Origin: Escherichia phage AnnaHegner_Bas87
Reading direction: 5' to 3' (one strand)
Sequence record: PQ850594.1
DNA length: 64,000 nucleotides
Shown here piece by piece: positions 24,763 through 47,521 of this stretch. The notes under the pieces are model-generated. The model ran no database searches and was not told the DNA's origin. It was given only the letters and a program-made list of their open reading frames with translations. Position 1 is the first letter of the stretch; the number at the start of each line of letters is the position of its first letter. A program made the translations under genes and the position numbers.

Positions 24763-24771
24763 TAATGTATA
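24763..24771 (+). promoter_or_regulatory. phage promoter-like motif TAATGTATA
   Basis: exact 9-mer 37 nt upstream of ATG 24808; AAGGAG RBS between. Confidence 0.45.
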
Positions 24772-34690: not shown

Positions 34691-34699
34691 TATACATTA
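34691..34699 (-). promoter_or_regulatory. phage promoter-like motif TAATGTATA (minus strand)
   Basis: ~60 nt upstream of start 34631. Confidence 0.4.
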
Positions 34700-34761: not shown

Positions 34762-34770
34762 TAATGTATA
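34762..34770 (+). promoter_or_regulatory. orphan plus-strand copy of TAATGTATA motif in ORF-free region
   Basis: no plus-strand ORF downstream; faces antisense to phosphatase gene. Confidence 0.3.
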
Positions 34771-41039: not shown

Positions 41040-41052
41040 GTATACATTATGT

Positions 41053-42765: not shown

Positions 42766-43074
42766 TTAGATAACCTTGTGCTTGTAGGTGTTAGGTTTGT
42801 AGTAATGCAACCAGTTTATGTGTTGCTTCTGTTCAAGGTAGTGCCTGCAATCATGACAAAAAGCATGACCCAAACCTGTTTCCTCGTTCAGCTTGAAATT
42901 GATAAGAAGCTTCTTCTTTTGACAGAAGCTACATACTTTAGTGGGCTTCACGTAGTGCGTCCCATGAGATTGGGAAAAGTTTACGAAGCTCTTCATCAAC
43001 AGTTGATGCGAATAAACGCACTTCGTATTGAGCATGGTCTGACAGACGTTGACGACACAACTCTGACCAACCAA
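42766..43074 (-). CDS. Cys-rich zinc-ribbon-like protein
   Basis: CSFCQ...CHDCRH motifs; 5' end overlaps ThyX gene in another frame, start uncertain. Confidence 0.3.
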   Translation of the reverse strand: MVGQSCVVNVCQTMLNTKCVYSHQLLMKSFVNFSQSHGTHYVKPTKVCSFCQKKKLLINFKLNEETGLGHAFCHDCRHYLEQKQHINWLHYYKPNTYKHKVI

Positions 43075-43588
43075 ATAAAGACCCTGTCCACACCCACTCA
43101 GTGATCATGCCCTGAGGCAATACGAATCGAGCTTGCTCTGGAGCGATAAACTTAATCAATTCATCATACGACTCAAGAGCTGTTTCGTATGCCCGATTAA
43201 TCAGAACTAGTGCAGAGTTTTGTGCTCCTGTGGTGAGGAGATTCCCCGCACCTGCATGGAGGTCCGAAGGTCTTTCAAAAATCTCTTTAGGGATGAAGAG
43301 TTCAACTGCTCCATCTTTATACCGCCGGGACATTTCGTTCCATGAGAATCCAACTTGGTGTTTATTGAGTTGTCTAGCAATTGCAATGGGAGCCTTACAC
43401 CGAAAGGTGATTTGAGGGTGTCGAAAAGGAGTCACATGACGTTCCCGAGCTAAGAATTTAATCAACCGCTCGTCACGTTCGTTCAGATCACCATCTCGTG
43501 TCACACCAAAGGAAACCCTTGCTGCATTGACCACAGATTTGTCGGAACCCATGTGCTCTACCAGTGTTGCTTTTAAAAAATCAGACAT
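42938..43588 (-). CDS. thyX: flavin-dependent thymidylate synthase (ThyX)
   Basis: ...TPFRHPQITFR...ARQL.KH....SWNEMSRRY ThyX-like signature. Confidence 0.65.
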   Translation of the reverse strand: MSDFLKATLVEHMGSDKSVVNAARVSFGVTRDGDLNERDERLIKFLARERHVTPFRHPQITFRCKAPIAIARQLNKHQVGFSWNEMSRRYKDGAVELFIPKEIFERPSDLHAGAGNLLTTGAQNSALVLINRAYETALESYDELIKFIAPEQARFVLPQGMITEWVWTGSLFGWSELCRQRLSDHAQYEVRLFASTVDEELRKLFPISWDALREAH

Positions 43589-44048
43589 ACTTCAACTTCT
43601 CCTTGTTGTAAACTTCTTCTGCCTCTTCGCAAGAAGCAAAAGTCCCTAAATGTATATTCTTACCTTTGACGCCAATGATGGCTCGGTATCTATCACCAGA
43701 AGTTGTCTTACGAAGATACACACCCCTAGGAAGATTTCCTATCTTGCTATCAACATCATACTGCTTTCTGTTATGGCAGTTAGTGGATGGATTTACATCT
43801 CTTAGGTTATCAATCGAATCATTAAGTTTGTTCTGGTCGATGTGGTCAATTTCAAACTCAGGAAACTTTCCATGAACAAAGAACCAAGCAAGGCGACAAG
43901 CTCTGTAGCTTTTCCCTTCATACTCAATATAACGATAACCTAGAGAAGATACATATCCAGCTTGATTCCCTTTAACCCTTCGACCTTTTGTGTTCTTCCA
44001 GAAGAAGGCTCCAGTCTTAGGGTTATATTCCAAGTCATCTTGTATCAT
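43581..44048 (-). CDS. HNH-AP2 homing endonuclease
   Basis: N-terminal ...YNPKTGAFFWK...AGYV..LGYRYIEYEGKSYRACRLAWFFVHG...IDHID... plus AP2-like ...DRYRAIIGVKGKNIHLGTFASCEEAE... Confidence 0.65.
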   Translation of the reverse strand: MIQDDLEYNPKTGAFFWKNTKGRRVKGNQAGYVSSLGYRYIEYEGKSYRACRLAWFFVHGKFPEFEIDHIDQNKLNDSIDNLRDVNPSTNCHNRKQYDVDSKIGNLPRGVYLRKTTSGDRYRAIIGVKGKNIHLGTFASCEEAEEVYNKEKLKYV

Positions 44049-44055
44049 CTCTTCC

Positions 44056-44268
44056 TTAATAATAAACTTTTGGTACTACTACAATGAAACCCGCTGCTGT
44101 CATATATGCACGGTGGATTGAAATCTTCGAATCACGACCCATCTTCTTGAGGGCACGTTTAGTGCATCGTGCAGTTTTACGAGTAGCACACGTGTTAACC
44201 CTTGGATACTCCATCTCTGGATATTCAGAAACAACAGCCCAAAAATACACATCTTTTCCTTGAGTCAT
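44056..44268 (-). CDS. small protein, paralog family member 1 of 4 (C-terminal K-V/I-Y/H-Y)
   Basis: 70 aa; shared TR.EAR..K.. and C-terminal PKVYY. Confidence 0.45.
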   Translation of the reverse strand: MTQGKDVYFWAVVSEYPEMEYPRVNTCATRKTARCTKRALKKMGRDSKISIHRAYMTAAGFIVVVPKVYY

Positions 44269-44283
44269 AATAGCACCTATTCT

Positions 44284-44499
44284 TTAATAGTAAATCTTTT
44301 TATAAATCAGGTTGCTTCCACTTTCTGTTTCAATCCCTTTCTGGATTGTAATCTTAGAAGCACCGGTATTAGCAATTTTTAAAGCTCGTTTAAAGCGGCG
44401 AGCCTCTCTCCGTGTTGTGTATGAGGAGAAGCTAGGGATTGTACTATCAAAATTAAACCACTTAACTACCCAAAAAGTAATCCAAGGTTTCTTTTCCAT
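44284..44499 (-). CDS. small protein, paralog family member 2 of 4
   Basis: 71 aa; TRREARRFKRALK ... KKIYY. Confidence 0.45.
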   Translation of the reverse strand: MEKKPWITFWVVKWFNFDSTIPSFSSYTTRREARRFKRALKIANTGASKITIQKGIETESGSNLIYKKIYY

Positions 44500-44500
44500 A

Positions 44501-44776
44501 TTAAATACCTTTCAGAGCTGTATCTAAAAACGCACGGAGGTTTGATTCAGTTTGCATACCGGACAAGCTGTAGTGAGCACCACTGTTCATGTTAGGAACC
44601 ACAAAGGCTGGGATACTGCGAACACCATATTCAATGGCTCGCTCTCGACCATCACCTTCAGAGATATTTACTTCTTCAACTTCTACGTTGTAATCAGCTA
44701 CAACTTTCTTAAACACAGGAGCCATAGCTGCACATGGAGCACAGGAATTACTATAAAACTTAATTACTTTACTCAT
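44501..44776 (-). CDS. thioredoxin-fold (thioredoxin/glutaredoxin-like) protein
   Basis: CAPC active-site-like motif after beta strand (KFYSNSCAPCAAM); likely start MSKVIKF with AAGGAA RBS. Confidence 0.55.
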   Translation of the reverse strand: MSKVIKFYSNSCAPCAAMAPVFKKVVADYNVEVEEVNISEGDGRERAIEYGVRSIPAFVVPNMNSGAHYSLSGMQTESNLRAFLDTALKGI

Positions 44777-44777
44777 T

Positions 44778-44954
44778 TTATTCCTTGTTAATAAACAGAT
44801 TGATATGACGCTGGGTAGCAGGAACAACAATAAAAGATTTATACTGACCTTTTGCTAAGTCATGAGCAATCTTCTTTGTCTGACCAAGACCCATCACACA
44901 GCCACTAACGATAATGGCATGTGCTTGTAATTCTTCAGGTAGGTTTAGTTTCAC
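44778..44954 (-). CDS. unlisted small ORF (58 aa, GTG start)
   Basis: AAGGAA RBS; stop overlaps thioredoxin ATG (TAAAATG). Confidence 0.3.
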   Translation of the reverse strand: MKLNLPEELQAHAIIVSGCVMGLGQTKKIAHDLAKGQYKSFIVVPATQRHINLFINKE

Positions 44955-44966
44955 TCTTTGGATTCC

Positions 44967-45152
44967 TTATAGCATACAAAGAATAATAACAAGAGGTAGT
45001 GTTATAGCAAAATGTACCAGAACAACACTACCTAGCTTGATAGCTTTAACATCCTCTTCTGCTGGGTTTTCTTTAATTGCTAAATTTCGAGCTTTATATA
45101 TAACAGTACCAACTATTAACGACCACACGGCCCACACAATCAGTGAAATCAT
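44967..45152 (-). CDS. small membrane protein (2 TM), tandem paralog
   Basis: shared K.NP...K.IK.GS.ALV.F pattern with next ORF. Confidence 0.45.
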   Translation of the reverse strand: MISLIVWAVWSLIVGTVIYKARNLAIKENPAEEDVKAIKLGSVVLVHFAITLPLVIILCML

Positions 45153-45161
45153 ATCAAACCC

Positions 45162-45383
45162 TTATGCAGTCAACAGGTGGAGAAGGAAAGGAATGACAAC
45201 AGAGAAAACTACCAGAGCAATGCTACCATGTTTAATAGGTTTGGCATCATTTGGATTTTCTTTAAGCATCTGCTTCTGAGCCAGATAAACGATACCACCA
45301 ACAAGGATTGCCCATACAGACCATACGATTGCTGAAAACATACTCATATCCTTATAAAGAAGTTCGCCCCACCTCTTGAACAA
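45162..45383 (-). CDS. small membrane protein (2 TM), tandem paralog
   Basis: see above. Confidence 0.45.
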   Translation of the reverse strand: MFKRWGELLYKDMSMFSAIVWSVWAILVGGIVYLAQKQMLKENPNDAKPIKHGSIALVVFSVVIPFLLHLLTA

Positions 45384-45404
45384 AGAGACAGGGCGGAGGT
45401 TTGA

Positions 45405-45980
45405 TTAGTAAGACACATCACCACTGGAGTGGGACATGTTGCTCTTGACGAAGTAACAGAACTTGCCAAGACCTTCATTAATTTCTTGAAGCATACTCTG
45501 GTCCACTGGATAGGTGCACAAGTCTGAATCAAACTCATCCATCTTCTCAATGATACACATAAGAGTCATGCACATGTCGGAAAGCATACCGTCCATGTCG
45601 AGATCAGCGTTACCTTCTCGGAACCAAGCATGGCCTAAATAATTACTAGCAGTAGCATCCACTTTAACACAATGAAAGCGCATACGCTCTGCTATTCGGT
45701 CGCCTGCCTCACGAGCATAATCTTCTAGTTCATCGAACATACCATGAACACCTTGGAAACCAGCTCCAGAGACGTTCCAGTGGTAGTTCTTTGCTTTGAT
45801 GTGTAGAAGTTCAAGGTTAGCTTGCACACCACACAAGATGTGTTCTAAGCTGTTACCGCTAATCAGTTTATTCATTCCCTCAAGACGAGAGATAGAAGAG
45901 TCAGTAGTAGAGAATGGGTTGCTAGAACCCACTCGTGTTAGTTCTGGTAAGTCGAAGACATTATTATGCATTAGGTGCAT
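45405..45980 (-). CDS. Dps/ferritin-like protein
   Basis: ...KAKNYHWNVSGAGFQGVHGMFDELEDYAREAGDRIAERM... matches Dps ferroxidase region. Confidence 0.6.
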   Translation of the reverse strand: MHLMHNNVFDLPELTRVGSSNPFSTTDSSISRLEGMNKLISGNSLEHILCGVQANLELLHIKAKNYHWNVSGAGFQGVHGMFDELEDYAREAGDRIAERMRFHCVKVDATASNYLGHAWFREGNADLDMDGMLSDMCMTLMCIIEKMDEFDSDLCTYPVDQSMLQEINEGLGKFCYFVKSNMSHSSGDVSY

Positions 45981-46311
45981 CCCCTTCTAAGTTAGTTGAA
46001 TTAGCTACATTACGAGCAATGTTATCCATGACCTGCTGGGTAATAACAATGCAATTCTGTGGGTCTACAGACTTAGAACGCCCCATTTCAGGGTCATAAA
46101 CCTTAACACGCTTGGCTGTTGAGCCAGTAACTTGCAACACTTTGAGAAGATAACCTTGGTTTCCAATAGACCATGCAACAACATCACGATTCTTGATATA
46201 ACGACCAAGCATATCACGATGATAGAACTGCTGCATAACTTTAGCTTTGCTAATCTCTTCAGATGGCGGGGCCACTTTACTCAAATCTAACATAACTCTC
46301 TCCTGTTTCAT
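45964..46311 (-). CDS. hypothetical protein
   Basis: 115-aa ORF. Confidence 0.4.
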   Translation of the reverse strand: MKQERVMLDLSKVAPPSEEISKAKVMQQFYHRDMLGRYIKNRDVVAWSIGNQGYLLKVLQVTGSTAKRVKVYDPEMGRSKSVDPQNCIVITQQVMDNIARNVANSTNLEGDAPNA

Positions 46312-46330
46312 ACAATATTCTTATACTGTA

Positions 46331-46339
46331 TATACATTT
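46331..46339 (-). promoter_or_regulatory. phage promoter-like motif (AAATGTATA, minus strand)
   Basis: ~20 nt upstream of start 46311. Confidence 0.3.
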
Positions 46340-46363
46340 GAGAGTTATCATATCTACTACCAA

Positions 46364-46579
46364 CTAGTAATAAACCTTGCTGGATATGAATCCAGCACTG
46401 TTATGGATATTTTCAATCCAACGATGAATCTCCACCTTTTCAGCGATTCCTAAAGCTTTTGTAGCTTTTATAGTTTTCTTAGCAAGACGAGCCTCTTGTC
46501 TTGTGTTGAATAATTGAATACAATCACCACCAAGAGCTTTGTTAGCCCATTTAGTACGAACTGCCCATAATTTATCCAT
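46364..46579 (-). CDS. small protein, paralog family member 3 of 4
   Basis: 71 aa; TRQEARLAKK ... SKVYY. Confidence 0.45.
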   Translation of the reverse strand: MDKLWAVRTKWANKALGGDCIQLFNTRQEARLAKKTIKATKALGIAEKVEIHRWIENIHNSAGFISSKVYY

Positions 46580-46791
46580 TAGTAATGTACCTTTCCGCTG
46601 ATATAGAAACGACCTGATTTAAAGTCTTGAGCTTTGTGGATAGTGATCTTATTAATTGTGCTTTCACAACTTAACAAGAACTTCTTATGAGCGCGAGCTT
46701 CTTGACGGGTATTCCTAATACCCATTGACTCTGTACCACTGCTCCAGTGAATACGAACTACCCAACGTCTTTTCATTGTTCCAAACTCCAT
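46579..46791 (-). CDS. small protein, paralog family member 4 of 4
   Basis: 70 aa; TRQEARAHKK ... GKVHY. Confidence 0.45.
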   Translation of the reverse strand: MEFGTMKRRWVVRIHWSSGTESMGIRNTRQEARAHKKFLLSCESTINKITIHKAQDFKSGRFYISGKVHY

Positions 46792-46987: not shown

Positions 46988-47521
46988 TTATACACCTTTA
47001 GATGCAACTACCCCATTGCTGCCATTGTAACGACCCTTCACTGCATAGGAATCATCACCAGCGTGAGAGTGTTCAAACATAACCATCTGACCAACACGCA
47101 TCCCAGCACGAACTCGTAAGCTGTGGTTGTGGGTAACGTTATGGAATTCAAAGGTCAGCTTACTGCTGTTAAACCCTGCATCAGCCCAACCAGCATGTAA
47201 GTGGTTCAAACCACAACGAGCCATTGAGGAGCGAAGTACAAACAGACTTGAGATGTTATCTGGAAGGTTAAACTCTTCCATTGAGTGCGCTAAGAAGAAT
47301 TGTCCCGGAGTGATGACAATACCATCTTCAGGGATTTTCACCTCTTTCCACTTGAGGTTTTCTTTAGCATCAATGTCAACAATGCCGTCAGCCTGTTCTT
47401 CAACAAGGATAGTATCACCAATACGGATATCCACACTAGCAGCGTTAACATATTTATGCTCCGCATCTAAAAAGCCATTATCAATAACACTGTGTAATTC
47501 TTGAGAACCTAAAAGACTCAT
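46988..47521 (-). CDS. dCTP deaminase / dUTPase-family enzyme
   Basis: ...NAASVDIRIGDTILV... and downstream motifs typical of dCTP deaminase. Confidence 0.6.
   Translation of the reverse strand: MSLLGSQELHSVIDNGFLDAEHKYVNAASVDIRIGDTILVEEQADGIVDIDAKENLKWKEVKIPEDGIVITPGQFFLAHSMEEFNLPDNISSLFVLRSSMARCGLNHLHAGWADAGFNSSKLTFEFHNVTHNHSLRVRAGMRVGQMVMFEHSHAGDDSYAVKGRYNGSNGVVASKGV

Follow-up and report, generated by a model that had tools for sequence, protein, structure and literature searches.

Phages of the Gordonclarkvirinae, phiEco32-like podoviruses with prolate heads, are described in PMC11990801 as common, broad-host-range Escherichia coli phages in therapy studies whose molecular biology is largely unstudied, and as unusually resistant, withstanding most of the defence and restriction-modification systems tested. 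The genes deposited for these phages as 'hypothetical protein' include phiEco32 gp69, gp70 and gp71 and ECBP2_0060, _0067 and _0068, and such genes have been clustered as PHROG 4939, a family whose library label (phrog_4939) reads 'unknown function'; our literature search found no paper on gp69–71 or on the family. Here we analyse four genes, paralogs A–D, that belong to this family and lie on a 64,000-nucleotide stretch of Escherichia phage AnnaHegner_Bas87 (PQ850594.1; the whole stretch is hereafter the window), in a region 95–98% identical to the E. coli phages ECBP2, HC-25922, 101114UKE3 and IME267 (Gordonclarkvirinae, genus Suseptimavirus). An earlier note, made from the sequence of the window, had singled out the four open reading frames (ORFs) as a family in two tandem pairs.

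Deposition and clustering of the genes are prior knowledge. What we add is the recognition of one old family with orthologous types and two fixed genomic slots, together with cassette turnover at one of the slots, a predicted fold and a basic, invariant helix motif. This is no new kind of system and is a modest lead rather than a surprise; a conserved multi-copy family with an invariant basic motif in a replication and nucleotide-metabolism block is nevertheless a tractable target.

Family membership and distribution

All four ORFs are present on the minus strand of the window: paralog A at 44056..44268 (70 amino acids (aa), pI 9.8), paralog B at 44284..44499 (71 aa, pI 10.2), paralog C at 46364..46579 (71 aa, pI 9.9; phiEco32 gp69 type) and paralog D at 46579..46791 (phiEco32 gp70 type). 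Paralog D can be read as 70 aa from an ATG at 46791 or as 65 aa from a second ATG at 46776 (MKRRW...); the second start, and thus the 65-aa product, is probably the correct one, because called homologs begin at MKR and a GGAG precedes that ATG. Three comparisons gave significant support for paralogy. In BLASTP, five of the six pairs matched each other (E 1e-10 to 5e-5), with no direct match for A versus C. In a leave-one-out test over the 954 six-frame segments of the window, profiles built from three members found the fourth at E 9e-8 to 2e-10 (8.7e-8 for A), and the best non-member reached only E 0.06 or higher. The library model phrog_4939 matched all four over the full length of the model (profile positions 1/4–67 of 67), at E 2.4e-12 (A), 6e-22 (B), 2.6e-22 (C) and 3.5e-26 (D). 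No fifth copy was found in the whole 64 kb.

The alignment of A–D has 12 invariant columns. Of the shared features listed in the earlier note, the C-terminal K(V/I)(Y/H)Y is present in all four proteins (KVYY, KIYY, KVYY and KVHY), and the central TR.EAR..K(K/R) segment holds for B, C and D, with A reading TRKTARCTKR (T for E). The 'W-rich' N terminus proved overstated: there is one invariant Trp in the first strand, and A has that Trp only. On the basis of the profile matches, and of genome positions that also agree with those in phiEco32-like phages, A–D are members of PHROG 4939, the family that includes phiEco32 gp69, gp70 and gp71. Each of 29 aligned relatives likewise matched phrog_4939 over its full length. 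The window genes belong to the same family and occupy the same genome positions as these relatives, differing from them in nothing of kind; the window carries a rare A-type and is without the gp71-type of Kuravirus and Nieuwekanaalvirus.

The family is small. HMMER, run exhaustively against 1.84 billion representative proteins, returned no more than 27 clusters at E ≤ 0.001, among them a 296-aa repeat protein that is a false positive, and word-indexed searches returned 11 and 27 proteins, the named ones all from Escherichia phages. When C was compared with 50,697 phage records by tblastn, 43 records matched, 42 of which are named Escherichia phages and the remaining one 'Phage NC-B', which has an E. 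coli host. Structural neighbours in BFVD (E < 0.01) were the same family in SU10, SE131, ECBP2, EK010, WFI101126, GAP52 and KBNP1711. A distant family member points to Salmonella phages of the Grimontviridae, and every family cluster with a named source or recovered context was phiEco32-like. Secondary PHROG matches were all single-member (E > 0.007), a related-locus search with two distant members found none, and tblastn with P0024 gave no match. As far as searched, the family appears to be confined to phiEco32-like phages.

Nothing named fits the family beyond the uncharacterised PHROG, in agreement with the earlier note, which had been unable to assign the proteins to a known family. Neither A–D nor the 29 family members had a Pfam match at E ≤ 10, and searches of Pfam, NCBIfam, PADLOC and PDB sequences with A–D and family profiles returned noise only. 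The best database match, to an eL27 segment ('ATRKEARKALKAIL', E 0.13), was a chance motif match. The note's rejection of ribosomal protein S21 and of the KTSC domain was upheld: there was no Pfam match to bS21 (PF01165) or, at E ≤ 10, to KTSC (PF13619), and the likeness to either is confined to short basic or aromatic motifs such as the C-terminal Tyr. The S21 fold, moreover, is all-helical, whereas our models have four strands and one helix. Nor was structural similarity found to AbrB-N or MazE, whose swapped-hairpin fold has the same beta-beta-alpha-beta-beta order. Finally, kinship with phiEco32 gp79, an RNA polymerase-binding regulator, was rejected, as gp79 lies in a searched locus in which the family hidden Markov model (HMM) gave it no match.

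Predicted fold, basic helix and possible nucleic-acid binding

AlphaFold2 models of D (15 sequences; pLDDT 77.7, pTM 0.61) and C (31 sequences; pLDDT 79.0, pTM 0.63) agree on a predicted two-layer beta-beta-alpha-beta-beta topology, in which the helix has 14–16 residues and starts at the invariant T-R, and strand 4 of C takes in the KVYY end. A Foldseek search of the models against the PDB returned nothing below E 0.25. All family members are proteins of approximately 8 kDa with a pI of 9.7–11.1 and a net charge of +6 to +11.

Conservation was assessed over 40 sequences below 80% identity (residue numbers are those of C). W5, T26, R27 and R31 never vary; conservation is 97% for A30 and 95% for both K34 and the C-terminal Tyr, and Lys or Arg occupies position 35 in 93% and position 53 in 88%. 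R27, R31, K34/K35 and K38 are spaced i, i+4, i+7/8 and i+11, a spacing that brings them to the same side of the helix, and A30, position 33, L37 and position 40 form its hydrophobic face; the TR.EAR..KK motif is thus predicted to form a basic ridge along the helix. Within strands 1 and 3, R/K8, K48, S/T50 and H52 alternate with the core residues V7, V49 and I51, indicating that the open sheet face is not hydrophobic but polar or basic. Periodicity, not computed coordinates, is the basis of these surface assignments.

We tentatively favour, at somewhat less than even probability, the reading that the family consists of small nucleic-acid-binding proteins made before late transcription. The retention of invariant surface Arg and Lys residues in paralogs that are only ~30% identical argues for one common, chemically simple ligand; together with the high charge of the family, it fits a common polyanionic ligand, most simply nucleic acid. 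The polyanion bound by each protein would most likely be DNA or RNA of the phage or the host, contacted through the basic helix ridge (R27, R31, K34, K35 and K38) and the basic, polar open sheet face; an individual preference or partner for each paralog would come from its variable loops and strands. All four genes would have pre-late expression, with C and D transcribed from a promoter upstream of P68 and A and B from a gp36-dependent P68-type promoter. Small basic architectural nucleic-acid binders are known elsewhere, among them the archaeal proteins Sso7d, Cren7 and Alba and p6 of phage phi29; the parallel, by analogy, would lie in their size (7–10 kDa), pI (~10), basic-surfaced beta-sheet and production in step with genome replication.

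Several points weigh against nucleic-acid binding. Confidence in the AlphaFold models is only moderate, and the surface was assigned from periodicity. Basic charge alone is weak evidence, and the role of the invariant Arg residues could be a structural one, such as salt-bridging with the conserved Glu or the C-terminal carboxylate. Our literature search gave no experimental work on any family member. We also list here the SU10 proteome, for which PMC4281155 reports detection of gp65, gp67 and gp68 and of none of CDS69–72, a non-detection that is uninformative for such small Lys/Arg-rich proteins.

Conserved slots, age of the paralogs and alternative roles

The genes around the four paralogs were identified by Pfam and by annotation in relatives; all lie on the minus strand and are given here in the direction of its transcription. 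Primase/helicase, DNA polymerase exonuclease and nucleotidyltransferase genes come first, followed by dCTP deaminase (46988–47521), a membrane ORF of 63 aa, D and C, the gp68-like gene (45964–46311), a Dps/ferritin-like gene (45405–45980; PF00210), two small membrane ORFs and a 58-aa ORF, thioredoxin (44501–44830; PF00085), B and A, an HNH_3 endonuclease gene (43581–44048) that overlaps the start of ThyX, and ThyX itself (42938–43588). The two pairs hence flank the thioredoxin and Dps/ferritin-like genes, as had been described, and occupy two slots: site 1, between thioredoxin and ThyX/HNH, and site 2, between dCTP deaminase and gp68-like/Dps. Both slots are conserved in 11 other loci (ECBP2, SU7, EK010, 101114UKE3, KBNP1711, phiEco32, SU10 and four metagenomic contigs). 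All of the Gordonclarkvirinae-type loci examined have two or more copies at site 2, a D-type and then a C-type, and 0–2 copies at site 1.

To count copies, we scanned the six-frame-translated window and 12 related loci with the family HMM. Complete regions hold 2–4 copies. There are four in the window (A, B, C and D), in EK010 (the fourth a different, divergent type between thioredoxin and B) and in KBNP1711 (one at site 1 and three at site 2); three in ECBP2, 101114UKE3, phiEco32 (gp69, gp70 and gp71), SU10 (HMM-detected) and the metagenomic contigs L008, L011 and L012; and two in SU7 and in Salmonella phage PKM.Hi.22.6, in which one copy adjoins ThyX and another lies elsewhere, after DNA polymerase. 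The partial metagenomic contig L010 has at least four copies, all in tandem at site 2, the first being cut by the contig end.

Two of these loci hold arrangements of their own. The array in L010, a phiEco32-like contig (Logan SRR26397420; 3–905, plus strand), comprises four tandem copies with 1-nt overlaps upstream of a gp68-like gene and is the largest seen. In EK010 (2283–2504 of the locus, minus strand), a very divergent fifth type, MSECKWALQVNW...TREAARTLRR...NVNYR, lies between thioredoxin and the B-type gene, with E 7e-7 to one family HMM and a drop below E 1e-2 with another.

The stop codon of D overlaps the start codon of C by 1 nt (TAATG), tandem copies share a 1-nt stop/start overlap in every annotated or called locus, and B begins 1 nt past the thioredoxin stop codon. 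The overlaps and the position of B directly after thioredoxin point to coupled translation, and tandem copies are probably made together.

The divergence among the paralogs is old. They share approximately 30% identity (~32% for C versus D), whereas identity to the phiEco32 counterpart is 43% for C of the window (gp69) and 48% for D (gp70). The C, D and B types each have orthologs at equivalent positions in other genera—those of C in ECBP2, SU7, EK010, 101114UKE3, KBNP1711, phiEco32 and SU10, and those of B, the site-1 type, matching by position in ECBP2, EK010 and 101114UKE3. For close ortholog pairs, dN/dS (Nei–Gojobori) is 0.32–0.38 for C, 0.11–0.23 for D and 0.13–0.28 for B, and values of 0.11–0.38 indicate constrained protein-coding genes rather than a recent diversifying burst. 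The paralog types appear to have arisen by old tandem duplication, so that of the repeated duplication and diversification proposed in the earlier note, duplication stands as the origin of the paralogs, but as an old event followed by purifying selection. With two or more tandem copies at the dCTP-deaminase site in all the Gordonclarkvirinae-type loci examined, site 2 has the look of core genes and not of a typical accessory anti-defence islet.

Cassette gain and loss is limited to the thioredoxin-side site (site 1). Paralog A constitutes a clean 228-nt cassette, inserted after B and before the HNH gene and bounded on both sides by ...TA(C/T)TATTAA|GGAAGA, a boundary that combines the conserved Tyr-Tyr-stop end of the paralogs with the ribosome-binding site of the HNH gene. 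In EK010, a different cassette sits between thioredoxin and B. An ortholog of A was found in only one of the 50,697 phage records (TH42, 93% identity).

This turnover bears on an alternative that takes up the earlier note's comparison with host-interaction or anti-defence genes and that we consider possible but rather doubtful, namely that the proteins are protein-binding modulators, small inhibitors or adaptors each directed at a different host factor or defence protein. They are small and phage-specific, several diverged paralogs occur in each genome, and copy number varies, with clean gain and loss of cassettes at the thioredoxin site; modulators would also fit the resistance of the Gordonclarkvirinae to defence and restriction-modification systems, which is reported without a molecular basis in PMC11990801. 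However, the residues common to all paralogs are surface Arg and Lys residues of one helix and not just core positions, which fits one common ligand better than many targets. The types are old and purifying selection acts on their orthologs, and a strong basic charge sets the proteins apart from acidic DNA-mimic anti-restriction proteins. Moreover, the genes lie in the replication and nucleotide-metabolism block rather than in the variable distal early region, which PMC8948821 ties to host takeover. A search of PADLOC-DB with 15 members returned no defence family, and PDB searches by sequence and by fold gave no phage inhibitor above noise, phi29 p56 matching at a Foldseek probability of 0.14–0.18.

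Their place in the block would also suit accessory subunits or regulators of neighbouring replication or nucleotide-metabolism proteins, for which dCTP deaminase, nucleotidyltransferase, gp68, the Dps-like protein, thioredoxin and ThyX are candidate partners and in which co-translated paralogs may work as hetero-oligomers. Synteny is strict across the Gordonclarkvirinae and one Grimontviridae Salmonella phage, and translational coupling is conserved both between tandem copies and with thioredoxin. Yet membership of a phage operon is weak evidence of physical interaction, and the same Salmonella phage keeps one copy by ThyX and the other after DNA polymerase; we regard an accessory role as improbable.

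The nucleic-acid-binding reading can itself be carried further, to a proposal that we hold to be a long shot: the family would be a new class of small nucleic-acid-binding proteins, peculiar to phiEco32-like phages, whose co-translated paralogs coat or mark phage DNA or transcripts and aid the unusually broad resistance of the Gordonclarkvirinae to restriction and other defences, with differences in copy number between phages tuning the hosts open to infection.

With regard to ancestry, we weighed whether the family could be a far-diverged offshoot of DUF2188 (PF09954), whose members are widespread in bacteria and have ~70 residues, with a W.V strand, an F.T+.EA helix start and an IH+ strand. 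DUF2188 and PHROG 4939 are of similar length and have a similar string of motifs. Consensus-like DUF2188 sequences were confirmed as PF09954, real members were retrieved, and hhalign aligned W-V, T(R/Q)xEA and IH in the register expected from the motifs. The match, however, is not significant; it spans 41 columns at a probability of 0.27% and an E of 0.22 (a single comparison, its sensitivity limited by a shallow DUF2188 alignment of Neff 1.5). A–D and the 29 relatives have no PF09954 match at E ≤ 10 (gathering threshold 22 bits), and the C-terminal ends differ, with a conserved DP.PP.G tail in DUF2188 versus K-V-x-Y in PHROG 4939. Because the hhalign probability is only 0.27%, we do not file the family under DUF2188, and a common origin seems very unlikely; as DUF2188 is without known function, membership would not explain the mechanism.

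That the genes are non-functional leftovers, or cargo of the neighbouring HNH homing endonuclease, is scarcely credible and largely refuted: A does directly adjoin the HNH_3 gene, itself variably present, but dN/dS is well below 1, the ORFs are uninterrupted and closely packed in every genome, and there is no HNH linkage, given B without HNH in 101114UKE3 and HNH without a site-1 copy in SU7.

Transcription context and neighbouring genes

For phiEco32, PMC8948821 reports six experimentally mapped promoters for the sigma factor gp36 with the consensus tAATGTAtA, one of them upstream of gene 68. The window has a candidate P68-type promoter, AAATGTATA (46331..46339, minus strand), with one mismatch to this consensus, within the 52 nt that separate C from the gp68-like gene. 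By analogy with phiEco32, we infer that AAATGTATA may be a functional gp36-dependent promoter in the window; from its position, C and D would end an upstream unit and A and B would belong to the P68 unit. One-mismatch matches to the promoter element number 26 in the window against a shuffle mean of 17.9, which is not clearly above chance, and scans of the region for sigma-70 promoters and terminators were not above shuffles.

The timing of these units is described differently in two sources. The SU10 paper (PMC4281155) sets the early/middle boundary at gene 68, with CDS25–68 as middle genes and the genes above 68 as early ones, and the 7-11 paper (PMC8948821) calls gp79 a middle gene product. 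Because the two disagree on the boundary, we describe all four paralogs only as pre-late genes.

Four exact copies of the gp36-sigma element TAATGTATA lie elsewhere in the window, at 24763–24771 (plus strand), 34691–34699 (minus), 34762–34770 (plus) and 41041–41049 (minus), and are candidate middle and late promoters. At 46378–46397 (minus strand), within the final codons of C and shortly before the P68-type motif, there is a hairpin with an 8-bp stem (TGCTGGATTCATATCCAGCA), followed by AGGTTTATTA. It might act as a weak terminator or RNA-processing site where the upstream unit ends; such sites are as frequent in the region as expected by chance.

Three neighbours of the paralogs merit mention. 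The gp68-like gene occurs in every Gordonclarkvirinae-type locus examined and overlaps the start of the Dps-like gene by 17 nt; it has no Pfam match, and its product is among those found in the SU10 proteome according to PMC4281155. The HNH_3 gene is present in ECBP2 and EK010, an HNH gene occupies the equivalent position in SU7, and 101114UKE3, KBNP1711, phiEco32 and SU10 have none; from this distribution it looks like a mobile homing-endonuclease insertion. The two small membrane ORFs between the Dps-like gene and thioredoxin (44967–45152 and 45162–45341, both minus strand) are adjacent paralogs (45% identity, E 2e-17) and constitute a second tandem duplication in the block, with one copy (gp66) in phiEco32 and SU10 and two in ECBP2, KBNP1711 and 101114UKE3.

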